Shown here: one piece after another, positions 1 to 19,270 of the stretch
Numbering within the stretch: the first letter of the stretch is position 1
Layout of the letters: each line of letters starts with the position of its first letter
NCBI GenBank assembly: GCA_020057405.1
Contig: JAGVFW010000008.1
Span: 3,218 to 67,217, forward strand
DNA: 64,000 nt
Direction: 5' to 3'
From: an archaeon
GTDB taxonomy: Archaea > Micrarchaeota > Micrarchaeia > Norongarragalinales > UBA97
Notes under the pieces: generated by a model
What the model saw: only the letters and a program-made list of their open reading frames with translations
What the model was told of the DNA's origin: nothing
The model's database searches: none
Made by a program: the position numbers and the translations under genes

Positions 1-3000
1 CTAGCGTTGTCGTAAGCGAGCGCGTTTCCGACGGCAACGGCAAGGAATTGTTTACCGGCAAAACTGGAGAGGACGGCTCGATATCACCGCAAGACGCAGT
101 GCTTGGCACCCTCATCACCGCGAAAGTCACTGCAGCCGGCTATTCTCCCAAAGTAAGCGACGCGGTGACTATCGTTGCGGAAACGGCAATCACTATTGAG
201 ATACGCAGCTTAACCGGACCGCAGAAGCTCACCGTCAGCCTCGTCGATGGCGACGGCAAGCTCGTTGCAAACGGCCTTTTGCGCCTCTACGCGCGGCAGC
301 CCGATGGTGCGATGGCAGTCGTTGACGAGAAAAAACCGTTTAAGGAAACAGTCGATTTTGAGCTAGAGCAGAACCGCGAGTACGCCCTCTCGGCTTACGC
401 GACGGGATTCTTGCCCCAGTTCTTCCAAAAGCTCGAGCCGGGCGGCAAGAGTATTACTTTAGTGCAGGCGACGCCGGCAAAGAGCGCGAGGCTGCGCGTG
501 CACGTGAGCAACTTTGATTCCGCGGACGCCTCAGGTGCAAGTGTCGCACTCTTTAGCGCCGACAGGCTGCCGCTTGGGCTTTCGGAGAAAACCACGGGCC
601 CCGACGGCGTCCAGTACTTTGACGACGTACCGCTCACAAAAGTCATTGCAATGGCCGCCTCGCAAGGCAGGTTCGGCGAATCGCCTGTCACTGTCTCAAG
701 CGGAAACTCTTCGGTCGAAGTGCTTTTGCCAAGAGGCAACGGCAGGGTGCTGCTGACGGTAAAAGACAAGTTCTCGCTAAAGCCGGTCAAGGGCGCTGCA
801 GTGCGCGTAAGCGCTTTTGAGGAACGCGCCTGCACTACCGACGACAAGGGCCAGTGCGCAGTTGAGGCGACCGAATTTGCCGGCGCACGCGCGATTGCCT
901 CCGGTGCAGGTTACGAAACTCTATCTACCGCCCAGTTTGACGTCCGGCCCGGGGTGGACACGAAAGTCGAGGCGCTCTTGTTCCCCACTTCAGTCACCGC
1001 GAGCACCAAGCTTGAGTTCAACGGCTTTTACGACACTTCGGGCAACAAAGTGACTACGCTTTCGCCCGCTAGCGTCTACCGGGCGAAGTTCACTCTCCGC
1101 TCCCCGCCAATTGACTATAGCCAAGCGCGCGCTTTTGTTTCAGTTGGGGAGCTGACCGCAACTCTTGAAGGCTCGCCGGTCACCATCACGGCCTACGACG
1201 CGGCCGGGGCGCAAAGGGTTTACACTGGCACCGACTTCCAGCTGGCCCGACAACTGAATTCGGCAGGCGACAACACGACTTTTGACGCAGCGGCTGCAGC
1301 AAGCGTGCCCAACGCCAAGGAATACAAGTGGGTGGACTTTGTTTTCGACAAGTTTTCCGGCGGGAGGGAAATTTCAGTCACAATCACGACAAAAGCTTCG
1401 CCTTCCGCAAAGAGCGCACTAAACTACCGCACGGAATTCTACACTACGGACGGCGTGCTTAGAAGCCCTGCGGACGCCGAGGCGGGAAAAAGCAAGAGCG
1501 AACTGTTGGCCGCGACTGACTCGGCACCAATCGACTTGAGCTTCCAAGGCACCTGCCAGGATGACTTGTGCGTCCAGGCATTTCTTGAGACTCTCGACGG
1601 GACTCGGGCGCAGACGGGATTCCAGACTCCGCTCGGCCGCGAGTTCTACCTCAAGTTCAAGGCCGCTTCATTCGGCACGCCCTTTGAGGCGCAACTGCTG
1701 ACGAGCGGAGTTGCAGTCGGGCTCTTGCGCGGCACGAGTGGCGGGGCCGAGACGAGCCCCAAGCCCGCCCCTGACGGCACACTCGCAGTCAGGATGCCGG
1801 CCTCGGGCGGGGAAGGCACGTTTACCTTGCGCGGCCAGCGCGTTTCAAGCGATGCCTACGTCAAGCTCACGCTTTACCGCGGCGATGCAGTTGCTTTTGA
1901 GAAAACGCTGTTTCTGCGCGTGAATGCTGAGGGAACGCCGACACTGTCTATTATTGCAAACCCGCGAACGCTTGTCGCACTTGCGGCAACGCCGGTTGTA
2001 ATCACAGTCCGCGACTCTCTTGGCGTACCCGTCACGGGGGCGCGCGTCTCCCTCGGCGGGGTTGGGAATGATGCGCTTGGCCGCATTGACGAGGCGACTG
2101 AAGACGTCACTCTACCAGGCACTTACCGCATTGAAAGCGTGACTGCCGAGAGCGCAGGCGTAATAGCGTATGCAGTTGACGCGGCGGGCTTTGCAATCGC
2201 GCGGGGCACCATTTCCGTAAACGCGCACAACCTCATCTCCGTTGGCGAGACGAGCTTGGCTGTCGAAGTGACTGCCAAGGGGCAGGAGACGCGTACGCCG
2301 ATTACGGTCACCAACCTTCTTGACAATGAAATCAGCGTCTCGCTTTCGGTAACGCGCGATGGCATTCCCAATTTGCTCGACATTGGCGCGGAGCCTTCGC
2401 AGGCGGCAAGAATGCCCTCACGGGGCGTCCTAAACGCCTATCTTAGGGCCGCAATTGCGGATTACGTGCTTGGCTTGGCGGCGCAGGGCGACACGATTAA
2501 GGACAGTATTAGCGGCCGCGTGCGCGTCATCGGCAAGTTAGGTGCGGTGAGGCAGGCAGTTGAAGTGCCATTCACGGCCAAGGCAACTTTAGTGCGGACT
2601 GCAATTTCTGACGCGTGGGGCATTGACGCAAGCGCCCTTAACATCGAGCTCTCGCCCCCCGATGTTGCAGAAAAGACGGTCGAGGTGCAAGTGCGCAACA
2701 CCGGCCCGCACCCGCTTTTAATCAACCAGCAGGTAAACGGGCTCAAGGGCGTCTTTGTTAACCCGCCATCACAGCAAGTGAGCCCCGGCGCTACTACGGC
2801 GATGCAGATACTCGCACGCGTTTCGGGCGCTTCTTCATCAAACCAATGCGTCTTTGACGCGACAACGACTAAAGGGACAATCCGCTTTTTCGCAACATTC
2901 CAGGGCATCTCAAGCAACAAGGACCTCCCCGTCACCCTATCCCTTACTGCAAAAGGCGTGTGCCGGCCGACCGCAGAGCAACTGCTGACCATGCCCATTG

Positions 3001-6000
3001 CAACTCGTTTTGAATTGCCCGCAGATGCCAAGGTGCGCAAGAATGATGACGGCAGCACCACAGTCCAGATGTCCGACGGCAGGCGAGTGCGCTTTTCTGC
3101 CGGAGCGACGGTGGCGACAACCGCGGTTACCGTGCCCCCTGAAACAGAATTCTACGCCGAGGGCACTGCGGCGACAACTGCAACTGACGGCTTCAAGTTC
3201 ACCCCGCCAGTTGGCCTTATTCTAGTACTCCCAGCCGGCGTGCCGGTTATTTCAAGAGGCGATTCAAGCGCGGCCATCATCGGAACCACTCAAGTACTCT
3301 TCCCCTCAACACTCGCGTTCTCACAGGATGCCGGCGGCAGGGCGGTGCGCGTGCCACCGGGAACTATCGTGCAGATAACGGCATTGCCGCAAGTGAGCCT
3401 CGAGTCGAACACGCTTGCAATCTTGCCCGCAAAGATAGTGTTCGACTTTAGCCGAAACGCCATTGTCCGCGAAAACGACGACGGTTCGTTCTCAGTCGAG
3501 TCTGCTGGCAATGCAATTGGCTTTAGCGCGCAATCACAGCACGCGCCCCAAGGGTCCGACGGCAGCGTGCAAGTCACTGTCCCTTCGGGCACCGGCGTGC
3601 TCTTCCCGACGGCGGTCTTTAGCGGCAGGGCAAACAATGGCTTTGAACTCCGCGTGCCCGCCTCACTCTCGATTGAAATTCCGTCCGACGTTGAAGTCGC
3701 AACTCGCGGCACGACAATTGCTGCATTCCTCCCCGACTATGACCTGCTGCTTCCTGCTGGAACGACTTTCAAGGCAAGCGCCGGCGGAAAGACTGCAGCT
3801 GTCGGGCCAAACGCAATTGTTTCATTCAAGTCAGTCACAGGCATTTCATTGACCGGCAACGCGTTTGCAAACCTGCCATTTGCCTTGAGGCTCGTGCTCC
3901 CAGGCGGGGCGCGCCTTGACGGTAGCGAAGTCGGAAAAACTGCGACCCTAGCATCGGGAGAGACAATCGGATTGCCACCGGATGCAACAGTAAGCGACGC
4001 CCAGCTTGACGGCACGCGCGTTACCACAGTGCCACCCTACTCACAAGTGTCGCTTCCAAAAAGTTTCTTCACTCCCGTTACCGGCGGCGGGTTCAACCTG
4101 AAGCCAGCCGTTCCCTATGCCCTTGGATTCCCTATCGGGACACGGCAAGTCGAGGCAGGCAACGACCTGCTAATGCTTTTGCCAGACTATGACTTGCGCG
4201 TGCCAAAGAACACGCGCCTTGCCCCCGACTCAGGCCTCCTCTTCACCACTCAGATGGCGGCAGGCACGCAAACGCGCGCCGCTCCCGCGCCCGAAATTTC
4301 AGTTGCCGACTTGGGCCGCGTAACTCTCCCATTTGACTTGACTGCCACGCTTCCCGCGGCCGCGCGGGTCAACGAGCGAAGCGACGGCATTGCAGTGCTC
4401 GTGCGCGACGGGCTGACGATCGGCTTTTCCGCACCTGCCGAGCTTTCGCACGACAACGGTTCGACAATAAACGCGCCGGCTGGTGCCGCAGTGCTTCTTC
4501 CGGCCTACTTGATTGAATCAACTCCTGACGGCAGCCTGAGGCTCACGCTGCCGATTGACGTTTCGCTGTCGTTTGACACTGGCGTGCAGCTCCAGCGCGG
4601 GCCTGCAGGCAACTCGTTTGTCTCCGACGACTACAAGCTTGACGCGGGTAGCGCAACGCGGGTTGACGTGAGTAAGGCGGGCGTGCTGCGCGCAATAGTC
4701 CCCGCCGGAACCGCGCTCACGCTAACCTCAACTGCAAACGCGATTGCCGCAGGCGACGAAGTCTCGATTCCCGCGCAACTGTCCCTGCAGTTGCCGGTTG
4801 ATGCCATCGTGCGGGCTCGGGCCGACGGCAGGCTCTACGTCGAGGCCAGGGGAATGCGCGCGCTCTTTGGCGCCGGCGCAACTGCCGATGCCGGAAAAAT
4901 AACTGTGCCTGAAAACACTCAAGTGATTTTCTCGCGCGGCATTGTCGGCCAACTCCGCAACGCTGGCCTTGCGCAAGGCCGCGACTTCAAGCTCACCATC
5001 CCGATTGCCTACGCACTCGCATTTCCTGCAGGTGCGGGGGCGCCCGTTGCGACAAAGCGCGGCACAACCGCAATTGCATTCCGCGGCCTCGTAATTGAGT
5101 TCCCGCCAACAGCGCAATCTTCCTCAGGCGATTCGGGCACGCTAGTGTCAATGACGGGCGGCAGTGCGACCAACTTCATCACTTGGATAAACGGCATTCC
5201 CGCATCCGAACTTGGCGGGATAATCGACGCGGCTGATGCGGCCTTAACGCCACGCGAGCGACTCGCCCTTGCTGCAAAGGACAACATTGCAGTGACCCTG
5301 CCGTTCCAGCTCGAGCTGCTCGTGCCCCCGTCGTTCTCAATGACAACTGCGGATGACACGGGCTCTGGGCCCGCAGTGTGGCTCTCAAGCCGGGTTGCAA
5401 TAGCCTTCGGGCCAACCTCGCAAGTTGCAGGCAGCGTGCCAAAGACAATAACCGCCCCCGCAGGCACCCAGCTCTCGCTTCCCGCATCTATGCTTTCACG
5501 CTCGCCCGACGGCGGCTACGCAATCACGATTCCATTCTCAACCGCGGTTCTCATCCCGGAGGACACCGAAGTAGTCAACGACAAGCAGACTTACGCACTG
5601 CTTTCAAACGCGCGCCAAGAGCTCGCCCTCCCAGCAGGCACGGCATTTATTCAAGTGCAGGACTTGCTTCGCGCCGACCTGCAGCCAAACACGCGCATTG
5701 AAGTCAACCCAATTGGCGCCGCGCAGCTTGACGGCCTGGTGCCCGTGCGCCTGCCCGTTGATGCGGAGCTACTGTTTGCAAGCGGCGTTCGCGCATTCAC
5801 TAGCGGTGCGAGCACGGTCGTGCGCCTGCCTGACGGCTCAACCGCACAATTCCCGGGAACAATTGACGCACAAACTGGCCCCGGCGGAGTGCGGGTGCTG
5901 CAGTGGACTGGCGGCACTGCGGCCATGCTGCCGCGGGCGGCAGTGACTTCGGACGCTAATGGCGGCACGCAATTCTCGCTTCCCATCGCGGCAAACGTCA

Positions 6001-9000
6001 TCCTTCCCCCGGACGCACGAGTGGTGCAACGAAGCGGCCTCGTCGCAGTGCTTGCGGCGCAGCGCGCGCAAATTACTCTTCCGACTAGCGCCAAGCCTGC
6101 CTCAGACAAGCGTGGCTTTATCGCAAGCGTGCCCGCAGGCGGCAGGATTTCAGTGAGCACGTTTGGCCTCGACGTGATTGGACAGCCCATTGTCGTGCCA
6201 TTTGAGATGCACGTGAACGTGCCCGCAGACGCGATTGTTGACGAGAACGCCCCCGGCGGGGTTGTCGTTGAATTCTCGGCCAACAGCCGCGCGAAATTCT
6301 CTGGCGGCGTGTTTACCTCACCAACCGGCCTTGGCACTGGCGCCAGCCTCTATGGCCTGCAGTACGGCAACGGGTTCTTCGGCTCGCAGCTAAGCCCATA
6401 CGGGGCTGGATGGCAGCAAAACCAAAACCAGTTCGCGCAGCAAGTGCGGCTCAACTTGCTAACCGTGCCGGCGTTCTCGCAAGTTACGCTCGCCCCGAGC
6501 TTAATGCGGCCGCTTGGCTACTCGCAGGGCGGCCTTGCGGGTGCAAGCGCCTATGAGTTCTCGCTCCCCGTGATGTGGACCGCAATTCCGCAAAGCACTG
6601 GCGCGATTTACAACAACCCCGACAGAAGCTACAGCATTTTCGTGCAAAACAACGAGATAGTCTTTCCCGCGGGAACCCAGTCAAGTCCCTTGTCGCAATT
6701 TGGAGGCGGGTTGGGAGCGCAGCAGCTTATAGTCCCGGCTTTTGCGCCGGTTCGAGTACTCCCAGTCTTTAACGGCGCGTCTCCGTTTGAGCGGCGGCCG
6801 CTGCCCTTTGAGATGGCGATGCAACTACCCCAAGGCGCACGCGTGCTGCCGAGGGGGCAGGATGGCACGCGCACGATTGACTTTGGCGGCGGCAGGCGCA
6901 TGGTGCTTGACCGCGACCTCTTCGTCGACGAACGCAGTGTAAGCGGCCCGACGCCACCGCAGCTAAGTGAATTGGTAATCACGCAAGGGACGCTAGTTGG
7001 CTTCTCCCCCGGCATTTACCGCCCGCTCCCGCCCCAGTTTGCAAACCCGATGGAAACTGCAAGCCTGCCGCAAAACTTGTGGGGCTTTGCACTCCAGTTG
7101 CCTGCCGCGATAAAGATTCGCGTTCCGTCTGACACGCGCTTTGCCAAGAATGCCGACGGGTCGCAAAGCGCTTTTGTGCAAAACTTTGAAATCCGCGTAC
7201 CCGCAGGCACGAGCCAACCGCTAACGGAGAACGGCCAGAATGGCGTGCGCACTCTTGCAGTAGCGCCAAACGCGCAAGTTTTGGTCGTGCCCCTTGCGCT
7301 CTCTGACTCTTTCGAGCGAATCGAGCTCGCAGTGCCATTTGACGTGACGTTTGCCCTCTCGGCCGACGCGCGCGTGCTGCCAAAAGCAGCGGACGGCAGC
7401 TGGGCGATTGAGGTGCCCGGACGCGGCTCGATTGCGTTTAGGCCAGAGTCCGAGCTTGCTGCCAACAAAGTGAATGTCCCTGCAGGCAGCGGCTTCTTTG
7501 CGTCGCGCGAACTGGCGAAGGCGGACAAGAGCGTCGACGAATTTGGCACGCGCGCAACCGCATTCACGTTCACCGCGCCAATGTCAATGTCGATTAAGAG
7601 CGATACCCAACCTCAGGGAACGGGTGCAAGCCGCTCGCTCACTAGCGGCACTGTTGAACTAGTGCTGCCGGCGGGTGTGCAGTCAAGCAAGCTGGGCAAC
7701 GCTTACGTAACGATAGTTTCCGCCGGCTCGCAACTCGTGCTTCGGCCGATTGACGCGAGCTTCGGGCAAAACCTGCAGGACATTTTCCTCCCAGGCGAGG
7801 CAGCGTTTAGCCTGCCCACCGACGCCAAGGCGTTCGGGACATCGCCTGCCGGCGAAATGCCAGTCAAGTTCGCCAGCGGCCAAGGCATTGTCTTTAAGGG
7901 CGGCTCGCGCGTTGAAGGCGATGGCGCTACCAGAAAAGTCATTGTACCAAACGGCGCGTCGTTGGCGCCATCTTATGCGCTCCTAAAGACTGCAAGCACT
8001 ACGGTCCGACAGCAAATTCAGCGCACTCAAACAGTGCCGCAGGGCTGGCGCTTTGCAACCCCCTCGCAACTGACGGTTACATTGCCCGCTGCAACGCGCG
8101 TCGAGACCGGCGACAACGGCTTTTTAGTGCAGGGCCAGTACGAGTCGTACTTGCTGCCTAGAAACGCCCAGCAGTCGCTTGGCAAGGACAAGGCACTCGT
8201 GTTTACCCTTGCGCCCGGCATGGTGATTGAGTACACGCCCGTTGACTTTAACACTGGCGGCCTGACCGAGTTTGTCTTCCCGATTGCGGCCGCACTCACG
8301 CTCCCGCTGCGCACCCTTGAGTTTGCCGACCCCGGCACTTCAAAGGTTTACTATAGCCTGCCAAGCGGGGAGAAAGTCGTGCTTGCAGCGCCTGCCAAGA
8401 AGAACGCGGCTGGCGAGCTCGTCGCGCAAGTCGAGGCAGGACAAGTTATTTTCGTCCCGCGCGGCTGGAAGACGGACGCACCAAACGGCGTCGTGCTCAA
8501 GTACGGCTCGCGATGGAGTTTTGCAGTTCCCTCCGGCACTAAAGCAGAGGAAAACGGGGGCGAGTACCTCATTCGCGTGCCAAGCACTGCATCGCCAACC
8601 GAGCGCGCCGGCGTCTACCTGCCGTTCCCACCTGCATTCTCAAAGAATGGAGTTGAGTCAGGCGGCCGCGAGCTGAAGAACCCGTTTGCCCTTGCGGCAC
8701 AGGCCACCAAGGCGTCTGCGGGCCAGAAGGCCGACGGGCAGTCGTTCGTCATCGTGCCTGCCGGCACTAGCGTTCGCTTTGAGGCAACTGAAAAGACTGC
8801 CGCCGACGTTGCAGGCGGGCCAACTGGCACCCTTGAAATTACTCTAGACTTTGACGGCGCAATCCAGGCTGCTGATGAATCAACTGTCAACGACAAGGGC
8901 GGCAGTGTTGATGTCATGAACACTGCTTGCGGCAACCTGCAGGTTGATGACACGGTGTTCCCCAAGCCCGGCAAGCGCATCGTGCACACCAAGACCGTGC

Positions 9001-12000
9001 AATTCCAGATTACTAACGCGCGGGCTGACGCTGAGTCAAAGAGAATCTCGTTTAAGGCCGGCGCCAAGCTCACCATCATCGCGTGCCGGCAGTCCGAGCC
9101 CGAGTGGCGCCAAGTGCGGCTCTTCTTCCCCGTGCAGACGACGTTCATTTTGCCAAACGACGCGCCCCCGCTTGAGGGCTCGGGCAAAGTCGACTTTGGC
9201 GCGTGCAAGGAAATCAGGACTAGCGCGGATGTCAAGATGAAGCCCCCGCGCGCTGAAGTGATTGACTTTGGCTCGGTGCCAAGTCCAGTCAAGTCAAGCG
9301 ACAAGCGTGGCCAGCAGCCCGACTCCTTGCCGACATTCACCGTGCCGGCTGACTACGGCATCCTCTTCACCATTTGCAAGGGCGACACTAAGTTCAACAT
9401 CAACACCCAGGGGCTTGCAAAGGCGCCCGTGCCCAACTCGATTGAAGTTCAGGTTGACGGCGGGGCCTCGAAGGACGAGTTGCACCTAGTGCTTGACGAC
9501 GGCAACAGGAAGGCAAACGCGCGCATCAAGATGCGGAATTCTGGCGCAACCGTGATTGAAGTCAACCTCGACTCTACTGAGGCGGATGACAAGATCAAGG
9601 CGGCCTACAACAATGAGGGCGAAATCTGGTGGGGCCGCACGGGTGGAATTGGCGAGGGCTGGGTGTGGGAGACCGGCTACGAGAAGAAAGCGCCGGTCTT
9701 TAGGCTGTCCCCAACCGACGACTTCAGAAACGTGGTGTCAACCGACATTTCACTCCCGCGCTCTAGCGAGTTTGTCAACCCGCTTACGGGGTGCGTTGAG
9801 AAGGAGGCAGTGATTGAAGGCACTCTTACTTTCAAGGGCAGCCTCGTCACCGACAAGAGGCCGACCCAATCCAACCCGCTTAAGGTCAAGATTGAAATCA
9901 AGAAAAACCCGGGCGCCTGCGCGGCGGCGCAATCGCTTGAGCGCGTGCTTCGCTCGGGCTTCTACGCCACGCACACTGCAGAAATCAAGGTTGGCGACTC
10001 GTTTGCAACACCCGGAAAAACGCTTTACTTCAAGACCCCAGACGCCAGCCACGTGCAGTACTTTGCGCTCATTAACAACCTGCAGGAGAAAGCCACGCTC
10101 TCGAGCAAGTGGACCGGCACGCAAGTCACCGACTGCAGCATCCTGAAGGCAGGCGAGCTAGTTCCCATTGACGCACTCGTGATGGAGAAGGGAGAAGCGC
10201 TTGTCATAAAGTGCACGCCAAAGGCGGGGGTAACAATCCCTGACGGCGGGGACTCGGGCAAGCAGAGGCTGGAGATTAAGGCAACGCCGAAAGGAACTGG
10301 AAGCGACACGGCCACTCAAACAACTCAATCTCCAGTTACTACCGTAACGCCAACCCCGACGCCCAACGCCGCAGGGCAAACGCAAGTGCAGCCCACTGCA
10401 CCAACGGCGGGCGGTTCTTCGTTCTTCAACACCGACGAAGAGACCAAGGCCAACACTATCCGCGCAGTTCCAGTTGACACGGTTGCAGTAATTGAGTTTG
10501 ACGTGTTTAACCCCGAACCGCTCAACAAGCAGTTCTACCTCGACGCCGGAACGCCTTTGGGCTCGCTTTGCCCGTTTGGCCAAAACGCAATCGACAGCTC
10601 GTGCAATGCTGCGCTTACCACCCCGGCAAATAATTTTGGCTCGGGTGCAAGCACTGGAACGCAAAACGGTGGGACGCAAGCCAATGGCGGCACTAACGGC
10701 CAGCAAAACACCCAGCCGACCACTCCCGAACTAGGCAAGTGCGACGGCGAGACGGCGAAAGTGCCTATTGGCACTTGCTATAATGAAGCCCACAAGGCCG
10801 ATGCGACCAAGGCGGGCTATGTGTGTACTGACGCGGGTAATGGCAGGGCCGACTACCAGATGGCACCCGCACAAGGCAAGGCAACCAAGGCGACAAACAA
10901 CGTCGACCTGACGCGCTGCTGCCCTGCAGGCGGAGTCAACCTGAATCCCTCTAACGACGGCAAGGGCTGCCAGAACGAAAACACCAACCCTGACAACACG
11001 GTCAAGGCCGCGGCCGTCTCGCGCATTAACTTCCAAAGCGCTCCAAGCGGCACGACAGGCGTGAGCGGGGCGACAGTCACCGCGCCAGAGACCACGACGG
11101 GCGGTTCTGCAGCTCCGACGGCGGACACCAAGGACGCAACGGCAGTCAATTCAGTTTACTACTCGCTTTGCGAGGAATTCTATTGCTCTAGCGACCAGGC
11201 GCAAATGGCTTTCAAGTCGCACGTGATGGGCTACCGCGAAATAATTGACGAGGCACGCAAGGAGAGCGCCGGCACGACGCCGGATGACAAGACGCAGGAA
11301 GTCAAGGTGCTCAACAAGCTGCGCGAGCGCTTCAAGCTCGGCTCGACGACAAGCGGCTTTGCGAGGGCTTTTGTCATACAAAAGGCCGGCGACGACAAGG
11401 TGACTAACGCGCAAATCCAGAAGGCTGCACTCGACGCGTTCCCGGCAACGACTTGGCACCCCAAGAACGTCGGGGTTGACGGCGAGCTTGGCGCGTGCGG
11501 AATCTACATTGTCCAGACGACCTTCAGGTTCGGGCCAAGCGCATTTAGCGCGGCCTCAAAGGCAGAGACCGCCCTTGCCGAATCCGAAATCACGATAAAC
11601 ATCGTCAAGGCCGCAGACTGCCCCAAGAACCTCGCTAACGCGCCGATCCTGATGGGGCCGCCAGTTGAGAAGGACGGGCTGACCAACACTGAAATCTGGA
11701 CCGGCAGGCGCGTTGTCAAGTGGCCGACTGACGTCGACCGCATAACGCTGCTCTTTGACATTGGCGGAAGGTGGGCTGAGCTGCAGAAGGAAACCGGCGG
11801 CGGGGTAGTCGGCACCGCGCTAAGCGTGCTCTCATACCCGTCAGTCTTGGCTCTAGGCCCGTACGGAGAGGAGTACAACCTCAAGGACGCGGTAATTGCA
11901 AAAGAAGCTTACAGGCAGATGTTCGGCGTTGAACCCGCCAAAGTCCTCGCGCACAAGGGCGTGAGTTACAACGACGCGGGCTACTGCTTCCAAAACGGCA

Positions 12001-14702
12001 TTCGGCAAGTGTTTGACCTGTCGCTTGCCTCAATCGGCCTTTCCTTGGGCGGCCTTCTCGGCTCTTTCTTCTCCGGCGGCACTTCACTCTCTGTGACAGC
12101 AGTTGGCGTGGCAATCGGAAAAGGAGCCGGCCAGTCAATCGGCGCTTGCGCGAGCCTTGGCGCTTCAGTCGCGGCTGGTACGGTTGTCACTTCAGGCGTG
12201 GGCTCGCAGACAGTTTGCGAAGCGTTCAACGCCTGCGTTTACGGCCAAATATTCTCGCTAATGACTGGATTCGGCGGAAGCAAGACTCCACCCGCATCGC
12301 CTTCGGGCTTCACAGCAGGAGTGGCGCAAACTGGAAGCGCGTTTAAGGGCGGCTTCGGCACGGCATGGAAGGAACTTACTGGCTTTGGCCTTGGAAGCAA
12401 GGCGGTTGCAGCGCGCTTCGTCCCCGGCATGGTCGTCGGCGGCATGGTTGGCTTGGGCGGCGACGGAACGCAAAACCTGCTGCCCTCATACTACCTCGGC
12501 AAAGAAAAAGCAAGTCAAATAAGACAAAGCGCGGTGCCGGATTCACAGCAATTAATTAAAGCGCTGCGTGATGAAGGCGTGCCCGCATCAGGCGCGATAC
12601 CACCAACAATGGTAACGGATGCGCAAGCAAGAGCTATTTTCAATAAATACGATGAACTGGTTAACGGAAGGGCAGCAACGGCAACTGCGACCGCAGTTGC
12701 TCCAAGATTCCCGGCAGGCGGGGCGCAAGCCTGGAAGGAAGCAACGCTCGACGTGTTTGGTACGGGTTTTGTGAGTACAGTAACGTTAGACAAGATAGCC
12801 CTCGCGGGTTCCAAGACGCCGTTTGGCGCGCAAACCAACGCTTACGTCAAGGCAGTTGAAGAGGCGCTCAAGAAGGCAGGCACTACTGAAGGAAAGACCG
12901 CCAAAGTTATCTTAGGCAAGTGGGGCCCAAGCATCAGGGTTCCCGGAAAAGAGCTTACTGACGGAGTTGAGGCGCTGGCTCAGAAAGTCGCGGAGAAAAT
13001 CAAGGAAGGAAAAGCGGAAGACATTGCAGTCACGGAAGCGCTTAACGAACTCAGAATGGGCCTAGACGACTCGGCAGTCATAGAATCCCTTGACGATGCA
13101 GGAAAGAAGTCTCTCGAAAGCAAAGCAACAAGTGCGGCAACTTCACTCGAAGAAGCGAAAACCGCGGCTACAGGCATCAGGTCGCTGACGCAAGAACACA
13201 ACTTCGAGGATGAGTTTAACCGCATAAAGAGAGCCTCAACAGCAGCTGAACTTCAAGGCATAGAAGATAATCTAAAGGGGCTAAGCACGAGCGGTACATC
13301 ATCTACCTATCGAACCAAGCTTATGAATTACATCGGCGACCGCAAGGTAGCGTTGGAAGGTAAACCGATTTCAGAAGCTAAAATTGCGGCTGAAAGTGCT
13401 AGATTTGAGACTAGGGTCAACCTATATCGCGGTTCGGGCGGAACATCTGAAATCCAAAGCGAAATATCTAGAACAATTAGAAGAATCGAGGGATTGTCCA
13501 GTTCTGGTGATGCGGCAACACTTGAAGGAAGCATTCGAGCCGACATCGATTCTTTTGTTTCCCGACTTAAAGGCGCTAATAATAAAGCGGCGTCAGCCGC
13601 TGAGAAAGCCGCCACCAAGGTCACGCTTGAAAACGTGCTTGATGACCTAATTCTAGTCAAAAAAGATGTTCTCGCTAACCAGGACGGATTTAGAACTGCA
13701 CAAGCAGGATTGGAAACAAAGGCAAACGCTGCAGAAGGAACGGCCGAAACCGCAACAAGAGGCAAAACTAGTGTGAGACTGCCTGCAGCAACGATTGACG
13801 TTACAAAAGTTGACGAGCTCGTTACTCGAATTGGGACTGCAACTGACGCCGAGCTAATCCAAATTGAAACCGAGCTTCGGACAACGAAACTTTCAGCCGT
13901 AAGCGATGCTCAAAGAAAAGTTACTAAGGCAATCACTGACAGGCGAGCATATCTTACAACCAAGGCGGGCTTGGTTGGCACAAGCGAGTTTAAGACTTCA
14001 TTCCTGAAGCGGTTGTTCGGCGCGGGCAAGAGCGAGGCAGACGTAATCAGCGTTGTGAAGAAAGTCAAGGCGCCGACTGCCTGGCGCGCGGCACTTGGAC
14101 AGAACTTCAAGGAGTTGTTCCTCAAGAAGCTTCCAACGGGCTTGCTCAGGCTATTCTTGACGCTATTGTTCCACGTTGACGTCGCGCCCGTGCAGGCGGC
14201 GCTCCAGTCGCACACTAACTCGATTGTGGCGACGAACTTTGAGTATGTGACGCGCGCGGGCACCAACTACATTCCATCTATACACCGATACTGTGATGCG
14301 ACTACGACAGGGTGCGACAAGGAAGTCGTGCTTGACGGGAATGGCGACTGCAGTCCACAGCAGGGATTTGCAGCCTGCGGCGGGTTCAGGGAAAAGACCG
14401 GCGGCGGTTACGCAGCGGCGTTCGTGGTTAACGACAGGGTCGAATCAAATAATGGCGGCCAGATAAACCAGAAGAGCGAAACGCCGGCTGGCACTATCGA
14501 CCTCGGACAAGTTGATGACGACACTGGCAAGATTAAGGCCGAAGCCGCTAGCAAGGAAGAACAGAAGGCGCAGGAGTCGGTTGGACCGCAGTCAAAGAGC
14601 CTGATGTCATCAGTATTCAACCCCGCCCAACCGCCATTAGGCAAGGGCTTCGGATTGATTGGCAACCTGGAAAAGAGGAGTGATGAAACAAATGGCGGCT
14701 AA
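1..14702 (+). CDS. Giant membrane-anchored surface protein, 5'-truncated by the window edge (>4,884 aa)
   Basis: One uninterrupted frame. The frame is still open from nt 3 to the TTG at 48 (SVVVSERVSDGNGKE...), so the true N-terminus lies upstream. It contains ~85-aa beta-sandwich modules resembling carboxypeptidase-regulatory/Big Ig-like domains (e.g. RLRVHVSNFDSADASGASVALF..TTGPDGVQYFDDVP). These are followed by a ~1,900-aa divergent repeat array, T/P/Q-rich linkers, Cys-rich modules, a Gly-rich hydrophobic block, a long A/E/K helical segment and a late TM helix (LLRLFLTLLFHV). Stop TAA at 14700-14702. Confidence 0.85.
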   Translation, partial: SVVVSERVSDGNGKELFTGKTGEDGSISPQDAVLGTLITAKVTAAGYSPKVSDAVTIVAETAITIEIRSLTGPQKLTVSLVDGDGKLVANGLLRLYARQPDGAMAVVDEKKPFKETVDFELEQNREYALSAYATGFLPQFFQKLEPGGKSITLVQATPAKSARLRVHVSNFDSADASGASVALFSADRLPLGLSEKTTGPDGVQYFDDVPLTKVIAMAASQGRFGESPVTVSSGNSSVEVLLPRGNGRVLLTVKDKFSLKPVKGAAVRVSAFEERACTTDDKGQCAVEATEFAGARAIASGAGYETLSTAQFDVRPGVDTKVEALLFPTSVTASTKLEFNGFYDTSGNKVTTLSPASVYRAKFTLRSPPIDYSQARAFVSVGELTATLEGSPVTITAYDAAGAQRVYTGTDFQLARQLNSAGDNTTFDAAAAASVPNAKEYKWVDFVFDKFSGGREISVTITTKASPSAKSALNYRTEFYTTDGVLRSPADAEAGKSKSELLAATDSAPIDLSFQGTCQDDLCVQAFLETLDGTRAQTGFQTPLGREFYLKFKAASFGTPFEAQLLTSGVAVGLLRGTSGGAETSPKPAPDGTLAVRMPASGGEGTFTLRGQRVSSDAYVKLTLYRGDAVAFEKTLFLRVNAEGTPTLSIIANPRTLVALAATPVVITVRDSLGVPVTGARVSLGGVGNDALGRIDEATEDVTLPGTYRIESVTAESAGVIAYAVDAAGFAIARGTISVNAHNLISVGETSLAVEVTAKGQETRTPITVTNLLDNEISVSLSVTRDGIPNLLDIGAEPSQAARMPSRGVLNAYLRAAIADYVLGLAAQGDTIKDSISGRVRVIGKLGAVRQAVEVPFTAKATLVRTAISDAWGIDASALNIELSPPDVAEKTVEVQVRNTGPHPLLINQQVNGLKGVFVNPPSQQVSPGATTAMQILARVSGASSSNQCVFDATTTKGTIRFFATFQGISSNKDLPVTLSLTAKGVCRPTAEQLLTMPIATRFELPADAKVRKNDDGSTTVQMSDGRRVRFSAGATVATTAVTVPPETEFYAEGTAATTATDGFKFTPPVGLILVLPAGVPVISRGDSSAAIIGTTQVLFPSTLAFSQDAGGRAVRVPPGTIVQITALPQVSLESNTLAILPAKIVFDFSRNAIVRENDDGSFSVESAGNAIGFSAQSQHAPQGSDGSVQVTVPSGTGVLFPTAVFSGRANNGFELRVPASLSIEIPSDVEVATRGTTIAAFLPDYDLLLPAGTTFKASAGGKTAAVGPNAIVSFKSVTGISLTGNAFANLPFALRLVLPGGARLDGSEVGKTATLASGETIGLPPDATVSDAQLDGTRVTTVPPYSQVSLPKSFFTPVTGGGFNLKPAVPYALGFPIGTRQVEAGNDLLMLLPDYDLRVPKNTRLAPDSGLLFTTQMAAGTQTRAAPAPEISVADLGRVTLPFDLTATLPAAARVNERSDGIAVLVRDGLTIGFSAPAELSHDNGSTINAPAGAAVLLPAYLIESTPDGSLRLTLPIDVSLSFDTGVQLQRGPAGNSFVSDDYKLDAGSATRVDVSKAGVLRAIVPAGTALTLTSTANAIAAGDEVSIPAQLSLQLPVDAIVRARADGRLYVEARGMRALFGAGATADAGKITVPENTQVIFSRGIVGQLRNAGLAQGRDFKLTIPIAYALAFPAGAGAPVATKRGTTAIAFRGLVIEFPPTAQSSSGDSGTLVSMTGGSATNFITWINGIPASELGGIIDAADAALTPRERLALAAKDNIAVTLPFQLELLVPPSFSMTTADDTGSGPAVWLSSRVAIAFGPTSQVAGSVPKTITAPAGTQLSLPASMLSRSPDGGYAITIPFSTAVLIPEDTEVVNDKQTYALLSNARQELALPAGTAFIQVQDLLRADLQPNTRIEVNPIGAAQLDGLVPVRLPVDAELLFASGVRAFTSGASTVVRLPDGSTAQFPGTIDAQTGPGGVRVLQWTGGTAAMLPRAAVTSDANGGTQFSLPIAANVILPPDARVVQRSGLVAVLAAQRAQITLPTSAKPASDKRGFIASVPAGGRISVSTFGLDVIGQPIVVPFEMHVNVPADAIVDENAPGGVVVEFSANSRAKFSGGVFTSPTGLGTGASLYGLQYGNGFFGSQLSPYGAGWQQNQNQFAQQVRLNLLTVPAFSQVTLAPSLMRPLGYSQGGLAGASAYEFSLPVMWTAIPQSTGAIYNNPDRSYSIFVQNNEIVFPAGTQSSPLSQFGGGLGAQQLIVPAFAPVRVLPVFNGASPFERRPLPFEMAMQLPQGARVLPRGQDGTRTIDFGGGRRMVLDRDLFVDERSVSGPTPPQLSELVITQGTLVGFSPGIYRPLPPQFANPMETASLPQNLWGFALQLPAAIKIRVPSDTRFAKNADGSQSAFVQNFEIRVPAGTSQPLTENGQNGVRTLAVAPNAQVLVVPLALSDSFERIELAVPFDVTFALSADARVLPKAADGSWAIEVPGRGSIAFRPESELAANKVNVPAGSGFFASRELAKADKSVDEFGTRATAFTFTAPMSMSIKSDTQPQGTGASRSLTSGTVELVLPAGVQSSKLGNAYVTIVSAGSQLVLRPIDASFGQNLQDIFLPGEAAFSLPTDAKAFGTSPAGEMPVKFASGQGIVFKGGSRVEGDGATRKVIVPNGASLAPSYALLKTASTTVRQQIQRTQTVPQGWRFATPSQLTVTLPAATRVETGDNGFLVQGQYESYLLPRNAQQSLGKDKALVFTLAPGMVIEYTPVDFNTGGLTEFVFPIAAALTLPLRTLEFADPGTSKVYYSLPSGEKVVLAAPAKKNAAGELVAQVEAGQVIFVPRGWKTDAPNGVVLKYGSRWSFAVPSGTKAEENGGEYLIRVPSTASPTERAGVYLPFPPAFSKNGVESGGRELKNPFALAAQATKASAGQKADGQSFVIVPAGTSVRFEATEKTAADVAGGPTGTLEITLDFDGAIQAADESTVNDKGGSVDVMNTACGNLQVDDTVFPKPGKRIVHTKTVQFQITNARADAESKRISFKAGAKLTIIACRQSEPEWRQVRLFFPVQTTFILPNDAPPLEGSGKVDFGACKEIRTSADVKMKPPRAEVIDFGSVPSPVKSSDKRGQQPDSLPTFTVPADYGILFTICKGDTKFNINTQGLAKAPVPNSIEVQVDGGASKDELHLVLDDGNRKANARIKMRNSGATVIEVNLDSTEADDKIKAAYNNEGEIWWGRTGGIGEGWVWETGYEKKAPVFRLSPTDDFRNVVSTDISLPRSSEFVNPLTGCVEKEAVIEGTLTFKGSLVTDKRPTQSNPLKVKIEIKKNPGACAAAQSLERVLRSGFYATHTAEIKVGDSFATPGKTLYFKTPDASHVQYFALINNLQEKATLSSKWTGTQVTDCSILKAGELVPIDALVMEKGEALVIKCTPKAGVTIPDGGDSGKQRLEIKATPKGTGSDTATQTTQSPVTTVTPTPTPNAAGQTQVQPTAPTAGGSSFFNTDEETKANTIRAVPVDTVAVIEFDVFNPEPLNKQFYLDAGTPLGSLCPFGQNAIDSSCNAALTTPANNFGSGASTGTQNGGTQANGGTNGQQNTQPTTPELGKCDGETAKVPIGTCYNEAHKADATKAGYVCTDAGNGRADYQMAPAQGKATKATNNVDLTRCCPAGGVNLNPSNDGKGCQNENTNPDNTVKAAAVSRINFQSAPSGTTGVSGATVTAPETTTGGSAAPTADTKDATAVNSVYYSLCEEFYCSSDQAQMAFKSHVMGYREIIDEARKESAGTTPDDKTQEVKVLNKLRERFKLGSTTSGFARAFVIQKAGDDKVTNAQIQKAALDAFPATTWHPKNVGVDGELGACGIYIVQTTFRFGPSAFSAASKAETALAESEITINIVKAADCPKNLANAPILMGPPVEKDGLTNTEIWTGRRVVKWPTDVDRITLLFDIGGRWAELQKETGGGVVGTALSVLSYPSVLALGPYGEEYNLKDAVIAKEAYRQMFGVEPAKVLAHKGVSYNDAGYCFQNGIRQVFDLSLASIGLSLGGLLGSFFSGGTSLSVTAVGVAIGKGAGQSIGACASLGASVAAGTVVTSGVGSQTVCEAFNACVYGQIFSLMTGFGGSKTPPASPSGFTAGVAQTGSAFKGGFGTAWKELTGFGLGSKAVAARFVPGMVVGGMVGLGGDGTQNLLPSYYLGKEKASQIRQSAVPDSQQLIKALRDEGVPASGAIPPTMVTDAQARAIFNKYDELVNGRAATATATAVAPRFPAGGAQAWKEATLDVFGTGFVSTVTLDKIALAGSKTPFGAQTNAYVKAVEEALKKAGTTEGKTAKVILGKWGPSIRVPGKELTDGVEALAQKVAEKIKEGKAEDIAVTEALNELRMGLDDSAVIESLDDAGKKSLESKATSAATSLEEAKTAATGIRSLTQEHNFEDEFNRIKRASTAAELQGIEDNLKGLSTSGTSSTYRTKLMNYIGDRKVALEGKPISEAKIAAESARFETRVNLYRGSGGTSEIQSEISRTIRRIEGLSSSGDAATLEGSIRADIDSFVSRLKGANNKAASAAEKAATKVTLENVLDDLILVKKDVLANQDGFRTAQAGLETKANAAEGTAETATRGKTSVRLPAATIDVTKVDELVTRIGTATDAELIQIETELRTTKLSAVSDAQRKVTKAITDRRAYLTTKAGLVGTSEFKTSFLKRLFGAGKSEADVISVVKKVKAPTAWRAALGQNFKELFLKKLPTGLLRLFLTLLFHVDVAPVQAALQSHTNSIVATNFEYVTRAGTNYIPSIHRYCDATTTGCDKEVVLDGNGDCSPQQGFAACGGFREKTGGGYAAAFVVNDRVESNNGGQINQKSETPAGTIDLGQVDDDTGKIKAEAASKEEQKAQESVGPQSKSLMSSVFNPAQPPLGKGFGLIGNLEKRSDETNGG
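2991..8800 (+). repeat. Protein-level tandem repeat array inside the giant ORF (~12 bipartite units of ~160 aa)
   Basis: Two sub-motifs alternate. Type A is 'F.L.LP.DA.V....DG....V....G....F..GA........VP.GT.V.F' (e.g. FELPADAKVRKNDDGSTTVQMSDGRRVRFSAGATV..VTVPPETEF; LQLPVDAIVRARADGRLYVEARGMRALFGAGAT..ITVPENTQVIF). Type B is 'F.L..P......P.....V...G...A.L.....L.LPAGT.F' (e.g. FELRVPASLSIEIPSDVEVATRGTTIAAFLPDYDLLLPAGTTFK). The repeats are too diverged to appear as DNA repeats. Boundaries are approximate. Confidence 0.6.
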
Positions 14703-15318
14703 GCCTAGAAAAACAAACAGCTGGCCGCTCGTCGCCGTCCTAGCGATTGCCGCGATAGCAATTGCAGTAGGCTACCTCGCGTTCCAGGCGCCGGGAACAA
14801 ACCCGGTAAAACAGGTGCTCAACCCAAAGAGCCCGCTTGAGAAGGCAGGCGCGGTTTTCGAGCAACAGTACGGAAAAGACTTTGCCACCTACTCCGACCC
14901 TGACTACGGGTTTTCACTCAAGTATCCCCTTGGCTACAAGATTGACAAGGGCTTTACCGACGACGCGAGGGTAATAGTCTATGCAGTATCGGCCGAAGGC
15001 GCACCCGAAACATTTACGGTCGGAGTGGACAACGCCTCAGTCGGACAAAACGAGTTTGACGGAATCGTGCAGCTATACGACCCGCAGTACGTCGAGTCGG
15101 CAACGCAAACGACGATAAACTCGGCAAACGCCTACATCCTCAGCGTAGTCGGGCCAGACGAGTACACCAACTCCAACTCGACAATGCACCAGGCTTTCGT
15201 AAGCTGCAAGCGTGACGACGGCTTGACCTACACCGCCATCCTCACCGCAATGGTGCCACGAGAACTGGGCGCCAACGTTCCACTAATGGACTACATGATT
15301 TCCTCCTTCAGGTGCTAG
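14683..15318 (+). CDS. Membrane-anchored extracytoplasmic protein (possibly a PsbP/DcrB-like fold)
   Basis: ATG 14683 is preceded by GAGGAG (14675-14680) and overlaps the giant ORF by 20 nt. N-terminal TM helix WPLVAVLAIAAIAIAVGYLAF. The YGFSLKYPLGYKI motif resembles PsbP/DcrB-type secreted domains, but this is weak. The ORF-track start TTG 14659 is an alternative. Confidence 0.7.
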   Translation: MKQMAAKPRKTNSWPLVAVLAIAAIAIAVGYLAFQAPGTNPVKQVLNPKSPLEKAGAVFEQQYGKDFATYSDPDYGFSLKYPLGYKIDKGFTDDARVIVYAVSAEGAPETFTVGVDNASVGQNEFDGIVQLYDPQYVESATQTTINSANAYILSVVGPDEYTNSNSTMHQAFVSCKRDDGLTYTAILTAMVPRELGANVPLMDYMISSFRC

Positions 15319-15635
15319 AATTGATTTGGGTAAAGGTGCACGAGCGCAGTTTCAAAGGACAGACGCGCACGGTCATCGCAGCCTGCGACGCCAGGCTCCT
15401 TGGCAAAGTGCTTAAGGGGAGAAACGGCGTTGTGCTCAACCTCAAGCTCCACCGCGCATTCTACGAGGGCGAGAAGGTAAACGGCATGGAGCTTGCCGAG
15501 ATACTCAAAGGTGCGATTAACGTCAATCTAGTCGGCGACGAGACTATCGCCGCCGCGTCAAAAGCTTTGCCCGTGAAGAAAGAGTACGCGAAAAAGATTG
15601 CAGGCGTGCCACACTTACAGTTCTACCGGATTTAG
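15312..15635 (+). CDS. DUF424-family archaeal protein
   Basis: VKVHERS..TVIAACDARLLGKVL...FYEGEKV...NVNLVGDE...IAGVPHLQ matches my recollection of the DUF424 pattern (..CD.ELLGK..FYGGE...N.VG...I.GVPHAQ). The GTG 15312 start overlaps the upstream stop. TTG 15321, 6 nt after AGGTG, is an alternative start. Confidence 0.6.
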   Translation: MLELIWVKVHERSFKGQTRTVIAACDARLLGKVLKGRNGVVLNLKLHRAFYEGEKVNGMELAEILKGAINVNLVGDETIAAASKALPVKKEYAKKIAGVPHLQFYRI

Positions 15636-16413: not shown

Positions 16414-16893
16414 GTGGTGGACAGGCGCATTCTCTACAGCATCGCCGCTTTTGTGGCAACCGCCGGCCTTTACCTCGCAATAACCGCCTCGGGCGCGTCG
16501 CTTCCGCAAGTGCCGTCACTCTACTACTATGGCTTGGAAGACTGGGGCAACGGCAAGGCAGTGAGCCTGGCGGGCGTCGTGCTCGCCTATCTTTTCGTCT
16601 CAGTGGCGGCACTGCTTTTCTTCGGCCACGCGGCGCCCCTTGCGATGGCAATGGAGGGGTTGAAATACGCCTCGGCGTACAGCCACGCGAGCGTGCACCC
16701 CTACGATTTTCTCTTCGTCATCCCGCAGTTCATCGCAGTCTACGCGGGCCTGAGGTTGAGTGCGAACGCCGAGGCCGACTTTGACCACAGGGGAACGGTG
16801 TTCAAGCAATGGCAGTTTCCGCTTTTACTCTACGTCGCCGGCGCGGCTTTGGCCCTAGTGCTTTACCTCGTGCGGCCGCCGTTTGTCAGCTGA
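16414..16893 (+). CDS. Multi-pass membrane protein (about 4 TM), no recognised family
   Basis: GTG start 22 nt downstream of a TTTTTAAA box. Four hydrophobic segments. Only a faint resemblance to SpoIIM/DUF95. Confidence 0.6.
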   Translation: MVDRRILYSIAAFVATAGLYLAITASGASLPQVPSLYYYGLEDWGNGKAVSLAGVVLAYLFVSVAALLFFGHAAPLAMAMEGLKYASAYSHASVHPYDFLFVIPQFIAVYAGLRLSANAEADFDHRGTVFKQWQFPLLLYVAGAALALVLYLVRPPFVS

Positions 16894-16939
16894 CTTGAGG
16901 CACGCGGGCAACGCGCCCACACCCGCCCCCCAACAGCAG

Positions 16940-16948
16940 TTTTTAAAA
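16940..16948 (+). promoter_or_regulatory. TATA-like box (TTTTTAAAA) for the 16970 gene
   Basis: Centre lies 26 nt upstream of the ATG. No SD-like element in between. Confidence 0.45.
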
Positions 16949-16969
16949 CGACGGCGCAGTTGGTAATCC

Positions 16970-17554: not shown

Positions 17555-17558
17555 GCGG

Positions 17559-17837: not shown

Positions 17838-17842
17838 AACAA

Positions 17843-18974: not shown

Positions 18975-18975
18975 G

Positions 18976-19263: not shown

Positions 19264-19270
19264 TGATAAA

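Follow-up and report, generated by a model that had tools for sequence, protein, structure and literature searches.

The window analysed here is a stretch of 64,000 nucleotides (nt) of contig JAGVFW010000008.1 (GenBank assembly GCA_020057405.1, positions 3,218 to 67,217 of the forward strand) from an archaeon of the phylum Micrarchaeota, and it opens inside one giant open reading frame (ORF) that encodes a modular protein and is followed by a partner gene, a DUF424 gene, eight genes for small membrane proteins and two genes for soluble proteins (Table 1). The giant ORF occupies nt 3-14702 of the plus strand in frame +3 and has 4,899 sense codons before the TAA at 14700-14702, with zero internal stops. 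The translation thus bears out a preliminary description of this DNA, which had read the frame as uninterrupted from nt 3 to the TAA. At 59% G+C, about 3.3% of random codons are stops, and the calculated chance of such an uninterrupted run is approximately 1e-72. The TTG at nt 48 that the ORF finder reported as start has a mechanical meaning only, given that the reading frame reaches back to the edge of the window. That the protein extends beyond the window had been expected as well, and the homologues indeed carry about 255 further N-terminal residues: the first ~20 window residues match residues 244-290 of the relatives (residues 268-281 in case of the homologues P0001, P0002 and P0003), and therefore about 255 codons are likely to lie upstream. 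The complete gene would be about 15.5 kb long and would encode a protein of about 5,150 amino acids (aa) and >500 kDa. Among the matches to the family-B DNA polymerase (PolB) of the window, complete or near-complete Micrarchaeota replicons have 0.78-1.3 Mb, and a ~15.5-kb gene makes up 1-2% of such genomes.

Could an ORF of this size be an artefact, i.e. a chimera of the assembly, a fusion of genes or the read-through of a pseudogene? That the 5' end of the gene lies beyond the window is a point in favour of this view. Window aa 21-4502 and the C-terminal module are collinear with proteins from NCBI, ENA and Logan assemblies of independent origin, and collinearity over >4,500 residues with independently assembled homologues disfavours a chimera or a frameshift. 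Tandem Repeats Finder detected zero DNA-level tandem repeats in the region of the giant ORF; the repeats at the protein level must therefore be old and diverged, and no repeats exist at the DNA level by which an assembler could be misled. The downstream gene order is conserved, too. The concern about a mis-join or frameshift that accompanied the first description is countered by the collinear homologues and the absence of DNA-level repeats, and we regard the probability of an artefact as practically negligible. The giant gene is real, and its family, its architecture and its conserved partner exist.

Table 1. Modules of the giant protein and genes downstream of it (window coordinates).
Feature	Residues	Position (nt)	Strand	Basis
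About four beta-sandwich modules, CarboxypepD_reg/prealbumin type	1-330	3..992	+	weak Pfam match in window, strong in homologues
Conserved N-region with Big_1-like module and A4 block	331-997	993..2993	+	blastp/phmmer; alignment A4
14-unit array of a ~150-aa all-beta repeat	998-3010	2994..9032	+	self-comparison; iterated hidden Markov model; alignment A1
Module M1, cysteine-containing, family-wide	3011-3420	9033..10262	+	jackhmmer, 34 members; invariant cysteine columns in alignment A6
T/P/Q/N-rich linkers and 6-cysteine knot	3421-3689	10263..11069	+	lineage-specific
Module M2, alpha/beta, five invariant cysteines	3690-4005	11070..12017	+	alignment A5; AlphaFold; jackhmmer, 28 members
Gly/Ala/Ser-rich uncharged hydrophobic block	4006-4230	12018..12692	+	composition; alignment A6; uncharged stretches
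Variable segment, probably alpha-helical	4231-4700	12693..14102	+	not alignable family-wide; hydrophobic periodicity
C-terminal module	4701-4899	14103..14699	+	jackhmmer, 24 members; consensus of alignment A6
Partner gene	211 aa	14683..15318	+	homologue downstream of giant gene in 9/9 loci; alignment A8
DUF424 gene		15312..15635	+	Pfam E=2e-11; in conserved cluster, 4/9 loci
Eight small membrane-protein genes (16414-16893, 16970-17554, 17559-17837, 17840-18220, 18333-18647 (-), 18747-18974, 18976-19263, 19271-19582)		16414..19582	mixed	phmmer and jackhmmer synteny
Conserved soluble protein	119 aa	19585..19944	-	homologues in L081, L082, L085, L089
Soluble protein closing the cluster	499 aa	19976..21475	+	homologues L085:26596-28062, L089:26346-27812; alignment A9

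A family of giant proteins in Micrarchaeota

A profile of the repeat (alignment A1, 14 units) was run by exhaustive hmmsearch against 1.84 billion representative proteins and found 59 proteins, about 40 of which are 2,800-5,161 aa long or fragments of such proteins. About 40 of the 59 have the N-region, two distal modules termed M1 and M2, and the C-terminal module in common. Six proteins from the tail of the profile list (P0005, P0024, P0030, P0034, P0036 and P0043) were left out of the family, as they are unrelated repetitive proteins of PKD, He_PIG or Rib type. In blastp, the window protein is 24-47% identical to >35 members: its closest relative, P0001 (5,147 aa), matches window aa 21-4502 at 31-47% identity, and members of ~3,000 aa match the N-terminal ~1,200 residues and aa ~3,700-4,100. 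All named members come from Candidatus Micrarchaeota or Micrarchaeia, and they are labelled “hypothetical”, “Ig-like domain-containing” or “carboxypeptidase regulatory-like domain-containing”; examples are MBI5177189.1 (5,147 aa) and MBI3588208.1 (5,161 aa), both annotated as “Ig-like domain-containing protein”, and MFH1106925.1, MBU1197541.1 and MBI4360955.1. The giant protein is thus not unique, and ~40 clusters have already been deposited, unstudied.

When the whole window protein was compared with Pfam, NCBIfam and the PDB sequences, nothing beyond a sub-threshold CarboxypepD_reg match emerged, and a literature search found no description of the giant protein family. A survey of proteins >5,000 aa mentions uncharacterised CarboxypepD_reg/Big architectures among its small number of archaeal cases (PMC11573180). 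The possibility that the gene is a routine member of a known family with no conserved neighbourhood, which had been raised at the outset, is contradicted by the near-empty library searches and by the conserved neighbourhood. With its N-region, the 150-aa repeats, the cysteine-containing modules M1, M2 and C-terminal module, and the downstream partner gene, the window protein is, as judged by these matches, a member of a Micrarchaeota-specific, previously undescribed family, which appears to be expanded here by extra repeats. Most relatives have 2,800-3,650 aa and 2-4 repeat units, whereas the window protein, P0001, P0002 and P0003 carry 11-14 units. The window protein keeps the order of modules (N-region, repeats, M1, M2, Gly-rich block, C-terminal module) and the partner gene. 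A fragment from ENA (P0004, 613 aa, on a 6.6-kb contig) is 70% identical to window aa 1393-2000, and this degree of identity shows that a much closer relative of the source organism must be present in a public ENA metagenome assembly.

The PolB of the window has 80 loci in GTDB species genomes, nearly all from Candidatus Micrarchaeota, with full-length matches at 42-55% identity. By this measure the source is a DPANN archaeon of this phylum to which no sequenced representative is close. Within 10 kb of these 80 Micrarchaeota PolB loci, a homologue of the giant gene was found in none, and in one genome PolB and the giant gene are ~60 kb apart. At three homologue loci, large ORFs encoding 1,800-2,300 aa adjoin the giant gene (L085:1-9705, L088:1-5949 and L090:19070-25918). 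The ORFs at L085 and L088 have the N-terminal region of ~1,000 residues in common with the giant family (~25% identity), and the ORF at L090 gives a faint CarboxypepD_reg match only.

The module architecture was derived from iterated jackhmmer searches of window segments against the family and from a full-length alignment of 16 members (A6). In the homologues, the chain begins with a conserved ~45-residue segment (W..FL.W...KGLP....A..LEEKGIPSLP) and a hydrophobic helix, both of which lie off the window here. The beta-sandwich modules that follow, of which the preliminary description had counted at least four, are strongly supported in the homologues, and the window itself gives only a weak CarboxypepD_reg match (Pfam, E=0.012, aa 252-323). 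A Pfam scan of 16 homologues detected CarboxypepD_reg in 15 (best E 7e-32) and Big_1 in 12 (best E 2e-17), along with SpaA, bMG3, MG4 and Invasin_D3, and found no enzymatic domains. The conserved N-region ends in the A4 block (aa 826-1000) with the invariant residues W, N, N, P, C, S and C, which are present in the window protein.

The ~1,900-aa array of unrecognised repeats that had been noticed in the letters resolves into 14 units with a period of ~150 aa. The units have 15-35% pairwise identity, and three of them (aa 2066-2444) are partial or degenerate. Across the family, the number of copies ranges from 2 to 14, with 2-4 in most members. A two-unit segment (window aa 1142-1442) was modelled with AlphaFold on the basis of a 33-row alignment of orthologous and paralogous units (A7), resulting in a wholly beta structure of ~30 short strands with a predicted local distance difference test score (pLDDT) of 94.1 and a predicted template modelling score (pTM) of 0.81. 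Foldseek found no match to this model at E<=1e-3, neither in the PDB (best E 6e-3, template modelling score <=0.27) nor in BFVD (best E 4e-3, score <=0.20); the most probable PDB match, which also lies above E 1e-3, is the TCP10 domain of CPAP, a single-layer beta-meander. The repeat, which makes up ~40% of the protein, is therefore predicted with confidence to be a beta structure, and no structural neighbour of it was detected. A pTM this high over two units speaks for a fixed position of the units relative to each other, and this suggests that the array may form a rigid rod.

Distal to the array, M1 is followed by linkers and a cysteine knot. Both had been pointed out before as T/P/Q-rich linkers and a Cys-rich knot, and both are present (aa 3420-3690), but they are lineage-specific, as jackhmmer found no family matches for aa 3421-3689 and P0001 is the only member that has such linkers and a similar knot. 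M2 is characterised by the motifs CxxxxC, GCG.Y, C..(T)LANA, GxY and Y.D..FC; the residues C34, C39, C143-G144, C184, N190 and C306 that are invariant in alignment A5 are all found in the window protein, and G212 is invariant in A5 as well. The AlphaFold model of M2, based on 27 sequences, has a pLDDT of 75 (80-96 in the core) and a mixed alpha/beta structure that runs into a long terminal helix, which is the start of the hydrophobic block. M2 has no PDB fold match at E<1 (Foldseek) and no PDB sequence match. In nearly all members, M2 is followed by an uncharged stretch of 25-56 residues with ~50-70% Gly/Ala/Ser/Thr, often then by a second stretch. The Gly-rich membrane block that had been described for the window is therefore present and conserved in this form, and its role in the membrane belongs to the question of topology discussed below. 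Three cysteines of the block are invariant in A6 (A.C ... C...N.C).

The span between the end of M2 and the C-terminal module varies between 151 and 690 aa in the family. In the window protein, the hydrophobic periodicity of the variable segment is of alpha-type and not of beta-type, which lends weak support to the helical segment that had been proposed for this region. By eye, about three copies of a loose 60-70-residue motif (...A.EL..IE..L..L...) can be seen in aa 4231-4700. The C-terminal module consists of a short hydrophobic segment, the motif VDV.PV.A, a 4-Cys domain (RYC..C..C..AC) and an S.F.P...PL tail. The hydrophobic stretch that had been taken for a last transmembrane (TM) helix does exist, but its status as TM helix is uncertain, as it has only 12-18 hydrophobic residues and carries charges. 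Altogether, M1, M2, the C-terminal module and the Gly-rich block each contain invariant cysteines of the disulfide type (A5, A6). In the two closest full-length homologue loci, a divergent gene for a DsbA-like Thioredoxin_4 protein lies directly upstream of the giant gene (L081:8418-9569 (-) and L082:1076-2164 (-)), and this fits the idea that the invariant cysteines form extracellular disulfides. In the window, the corresponding position falls beyond the edge.

Sequon depletion and topology of the chain

N-glycosylation sequons (N-X-S/T, X not P) were counted and compared with expectations, which in case of the window protein come from 2,000 composition-preserving shuffles, and the reversed motif [ST]-X-N served as control. 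The window protein has 3 sequons (aa 235, 424 and 1485), whereas 26.5+/-4.7 are expected (0.11x) and no shuffle had less than 10. In 27 family members together, 182 sequons stand against 546 expected ones (0.33), and the reversed motif occurs 488 times (0.89). The depletion is complete at the distal end: summed over 25 members, the span from M2 to the C-terminal module has 0 sequons vs 47 expected (reversed motif 29), and the C-terminal module has 0 vs 28 (reversed motif 25), which for both regions combined amounts to 0 vs 75 expected, with 54 reversed motifs.

Other proteins of the same window behave differently. The 19 non-surface proteins contain 27 sequons with 25.7 expected (1.05x), whereas a CARDB protein of 1,537 aa contains 65 with 22.5 expected (2.9x), and the ORF behind its gene 12 with 3.2 expected. 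As the CARDB protein is enriched and the giant family depleted, the source organism very probably N-glycosylates its ordinary surface proteins, and the giant family has very probably been selected against such sites. The glycosylation signature of the CARDB protein (56880-61493, +), which combines CARDB with a 3-keto-disaccharide-hydrolase/LamG-like domain, is opposite to that of the giant protein; its gene and the next ORF (61481-62440, +) adjoin a type IV pilus-type set at 52526-55948 (-) with a T2SSE ATPase and two T2SSF platform proteins. The ORF at L085:4216-9705, next to a giant gene, is likewise enriched in sequons (29 vs 16 expected), contrary to the giant family. A literature search brought up no account of giant archaeal proteins that are depleted of sequons.

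The cytoplasmic proteins are unbiased, and the depletion therefore argues that nearly the whole chain past the N-terminal anchor, including the helical segment, is outside the cell; for the helical and C-terminal parts, the sequon counts suggest an extracellular position. This makes the topology that the preliminary description had implied, i.e. a membrane block, a helical segment and a second TM helix, doubtful, because the depletion continues through the helical and C-terminal parts.

How else could such a chain be placed in the cell envelope? The protein could be a scaffold that is anchored at both ends in the archaeon's own membrane, by the N-terminal TM helix and by the C-terminal hydrophobic segments, without contact to another cell. 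Comparable to a SlaB-like stalk of very large size, it would then serve as loop or strut for the organisation of the pseudoperiplasm or for the anchoring of the surface layer (S-layer). Hydrophobic segments at both ends of the chain would fit this role, the long and probably helical segment before the last hydrophobic stretch recalls coiled-coil S-layer stalks, and the family is conserved in the manner of a housekeeping envelope component. In addition, the S-layer protein of Micrarchaeota possibly depends on a second, membrane-anchored protein as partner (bioRxiv 10.1101/2021.04.28.441871). However, two simple TM segments would place the 150-690 residues between them in the cytoplasm, and it is exactly this span that lacks all of its expected sequons, which points to the outside, and the last hydrophobic stretch is short and charged. 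A 5,000-residue stoichiometric S-layer anchor would be extremely costly, and a number of repeats that ranges from 2 to 14 is hard to reconcile with a fixed spacing of the envelope. We therefore consider a scaffold of this kind unlikely.

The partner gene and its surroundings

The neighbourhood was compared at nine independent homologue loci (L081-L090, with L083/L084 being the same locus from two sources). A homologue of the gene downstream of the giant ORF is found in all nine. This partner gene begins at an ATG (14683 or 14692) that still falls within the final 20 nt of the giant ORF and is preceded by a GAGGAG motif. A translational coupling of the two genes, as it had been asserted before, is plausible in view of this arrangement. 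Elsewhere, the partner gene is directly adjacent in seven loci, with distances from a 4-nt overlap to a 39-nt gap, and it lies one to three genes further on in three other records, L083/L084, L086 and L087. The partner proteins (~190-245 aa) have a TM anchor at the N-terminus and carry the motif Y.D..YGF..YP.GY as well as two invariant cysteines, one inside the chain and one at or next to the C-terminus (A8). Library searches gave no credible family or PDB assignment for the partner. A PsbP-like identity was considered and rejected, since only one of eight members matches, at E=0.006, and no PDB match was found.

The genes further downstream are conserved less widely. The set of DUF424, the eight membrane proteins, the 119-aa protein and the 499-aa protein appears in collinear order at four of the nine loci (L081, L082, L085 and L089), and one of these collinear loci has a giant protein that is only ~30% identical to that of the window. 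In the other five loci, the small-ORF cluster is absent within 10 kb, and only the partner gene is universal. Co-occurrence of the giant gene with the genes at 14.7-19.6 kb, which had been suggested as a check, thus holds for the partner in 9/9 loci and for the rest of the cluster in 4/9. The eight membrane ORFs that had been called orphans are real membrane-protein ORFs, but as they are conserved in relatives, they are conserved genes and not orphans, although no Pfam or NCBIfam family covers any of them. Three of them (16970-17554, 17559-17837 and 18747-18974) are mutual paralogues according to jackhmmer cross-matches among the homologues in L081, L082, L085 and L089. Two tandem genes for DUF4389 membrane proteins (15789-16358, -) are located between DUF424 and the small-ORF cluster; this pair is missing at the corresponding position in the same four loci and therefore looks like a lineage-specific insertion.

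The 499-aa protein has no match in Pfam, NCBIfam or PDB. Its segment VVAGGSREQRL...VPVVIIDSSNSFAGL...AVVAFEADL...GFILHAEHELD bears some resemblance to a P-loop core of the HerA/VirB4 type with a degenerate Walker A motif, but library searches gave no support, and the assignment as HerA/VirB4-like ATPase was rejected.

The conserved cluster of eight small membrane proteins and one 499-aa soluble protein in four of nine loci could be taken as the membrane machinery of a secretion or transfer conduit to which the giant protein belongs, especially as giant proteins of nanohaloarchaea have been proposed to be similar to type IV secretion systems (PMC10266531); the putative degenerate P-loop core of the 499-aa protein would be in line with this. 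Library scans detected no VirB4, TraG or other ATPase domain in the giant protein, the 16 homologues or the neighbours, and within 10 kb the small-ORF cluster is absent in five of nine loci, with the partner gene alone being universal. This makes a conduit very improbable.

The remainder of the window contains, among others, the family-B DNA polymerase gene, a gene for a flavoprotein of the geranylgeranyl-reductase type, and a type IV pilus-type ATPase with platform proteins. At 32933-37931 (-), two adjacent genes encode proteins of 698 and 573 aa with HATPase_c_3 domains (GHKL/MORC-type), followed by an orphan of 384 aa. This gene pair may be a module of the defence type, and PADLOC gave weak TmtA matches only (E ~5e-4). 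No tRNA and no Rfam matches were found in the window.

A proposed role in cell contact, and known systems

Taking these features together, we favour, with modest confidence, the view that the giant protein is an N-terminally anchored, exported, long and glycan-free fibre, whose distal modules, together with the partner protein, contact another cell, most plausibly the host of an episymbiont. The ~45-residue segment would be cytoplasmic and would, with the one TM helix seen in the homologues, anchor the N-terminus in the archaeon's own membrane, while the remaining ~4,900 residues would be exported and fold into a long fibre. This fibre would begin with beta-sandwiches of the CarboxypepD_reg/Big type and continue as a rigid rod of fourteen 150-residue all-beta units. 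At the far end, the disulfide-stabilised modules M1 and M2 and the 4-Cys domain, along with the uncharged Gly-rich block, likely form the business end that binds a surface or a membrane, be it that of the host cell or that of the archaeon itself. In contrast to the ordinary surface glycoproteins of the same organism, the fibre would be kept almost free of N-glycans, and it would act together with the co-expressed membrane-anchored partner of ~210 residues. The likeliest role of such an arrangement would be to bring the archaeon into physical contact with another cell or to attach it there, this cell being the host of the episymbiont.

Several observations speak against this view or limit its weight. 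The searches with the giant protein identified no known ligand-binding or adhesin head domain. The N-terminus of the window protein lies beyond the window, so that the anchor is known from the homologues, and the sequon depletion is not family-wide, as P0020 has 24 sequons with 19 expected and P0056 has 18 with 25 expected. The shape and length of the predicted rod are deduced from confidence scores and the strand pattern, and for export and topology the evidence consists of hydropathy, cysteine patterns and sequon statistics. It is from this kind of evidence that we infer export and topology, the shape of the fibre and its part in cell contact.

The Gly-rich block invites a different view of the distal end. 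Instead of binding a surface, the Gly-rich hairpins could be delivered, together with M2 and the helical segment, into the host membrane, which would be tethered, permeabilised or fused, or would become part of an intercellular bridge. Viral fusion peptides and glycine-zipper pore formers resemble the Gly-rich block in composition, and the uncharged Gly/Ala/Ser/Thr-rich stretch follows M2 in nearly all members. The block is located at the chain end opposite to the N-terminal anchor, the distal part appears to be extracellular and free of glycans throughout, and the cultivated Micrarchaeota have Thermoplasmatales as hosts, which have no S-layer or cell wall. On the other hand, M2 is unlike any fusion or pore-forming protein in the PDB (no match at E<1), and the same features would fit an anchoring in the membrane of the producer. 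A membrane-inserting device thus appears rather improbable to us. A specific version of this idea, which we consider comparably improbable, would be a “harpoon”, in which the rod extends from the Micrarchaeon and the distal hairpins, M2 and the C-terminal module insert together with the partner protein into the membrane of a wall-less host. If this were the case, the harpoon would constitute the tether, or the bridge between the cytoplasms, that supplies DPANN symbionts with lipids and metabolites, and the purge of sequons would be an adaptation for threading the rod through the S-layer and for the entry of the tip into a foreign bilayer.

Whichever of these views applies to the tip, the fibre in contact with another cell that we favour bears on the open question of host recognition and attachment in DPANN archaea, as no attachment molecule has been identified for Micrarchaeota. 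What had been an isolated giant ORF is now a defined, phylum-specific family with a fixed order of modules, an obligatory partner, a confidently predicted repeat fold without neighbour and two further conserved modules, and sequon avoidance is a statistically strong signature that sets the giant protein apart from the ordinary surface glycoproteins of the same cell. A giant surface protein in a DPANN archaeon will not surprise specialists, but family, partner and glycan avoidance together make the question of host contact testable, and related genomes can be searched with the profile of the family. Should the distal hydrophobic block enter host membranes, this would represent a new kind of intercellular contact device.

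What known systems can the giant protein be compared with? Structural similarity was not detected in case of the repeat model to beta-solenoid or beta-helix fibre adhesins and phage tail fibres (Foldseek, PDB and BFVD), or in case of M2 to viral fusion proteins and archaeal fusexins (PDB, no match at E<1). Bacterial Ig-fold adhesins, such as Big_1/invasin-intimin proteins and stalks of the SpaA/SdrD type, have tandem beta-sandwich modules of the same Pfam families, and they have in common with the giant protein the logic of a long stalk that presents a distal binding end. They belong to a different cell envelope, however, and the giant protein has neither a beta-barrel nor a sortase anchor, and its distal modules are unrelated to known adhesin heads.

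Within the same phylum, the surface protein SLP_Mh (Micr_00292, 101 kDa, PF05123) comprises ~1,000 aa with an S-layer domain and numerous predicted N- and O-glycosylation sites, and it appears to be glycosylated (bioRxiv 10.1101/2021.04.28.441871). The giant protein, in contrast, is >500 kDa in size, sequon-depleted and without S-layer domain: Pfam and NCBIfam gave no match to such a domain in the window protein or the 16 homologues, and the protein lies outside the usual range of archaeal S-layer proteins (40-200 kDa, many sequons).

Outside its own family of homologues, the closest functional resemblance is to the SPEARE giants of Nanohaloarchaeota, with which the giant protein has in common the lifestyle context and the general logic but not the domains: SVXNc_0300 (9,409 aa) and BNXNv_0298, which have been proposed to be host-interaction devices (PMC10266531). 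Like the protein described here, these are giant, membrane-anchored, extracellular DPANN proteins that are rich in Ig-like domains, take up a percent-scale share of a ~1-Mb genome and have functionally linked genes downstream (PMC10266531). They differ in that they possess beta-propellers and a Sec signal as well as an ATPase domain of the VirB4/TraG-like type in the cytosol, and another gene for such an ATPase lies downstream (PMC10266531); when compared by this description, the VirB4/TraG-like ATPase and the beta-propellers have no Pfam or NCBIfam match in the giant protein of the window, in its homologues or in the neighbouring genes. The giant protein is of the DPANN giant surface protein type, and the repeat fold, M1, M2, the partner and the purge of sequons are the new elements that it adds to this type.

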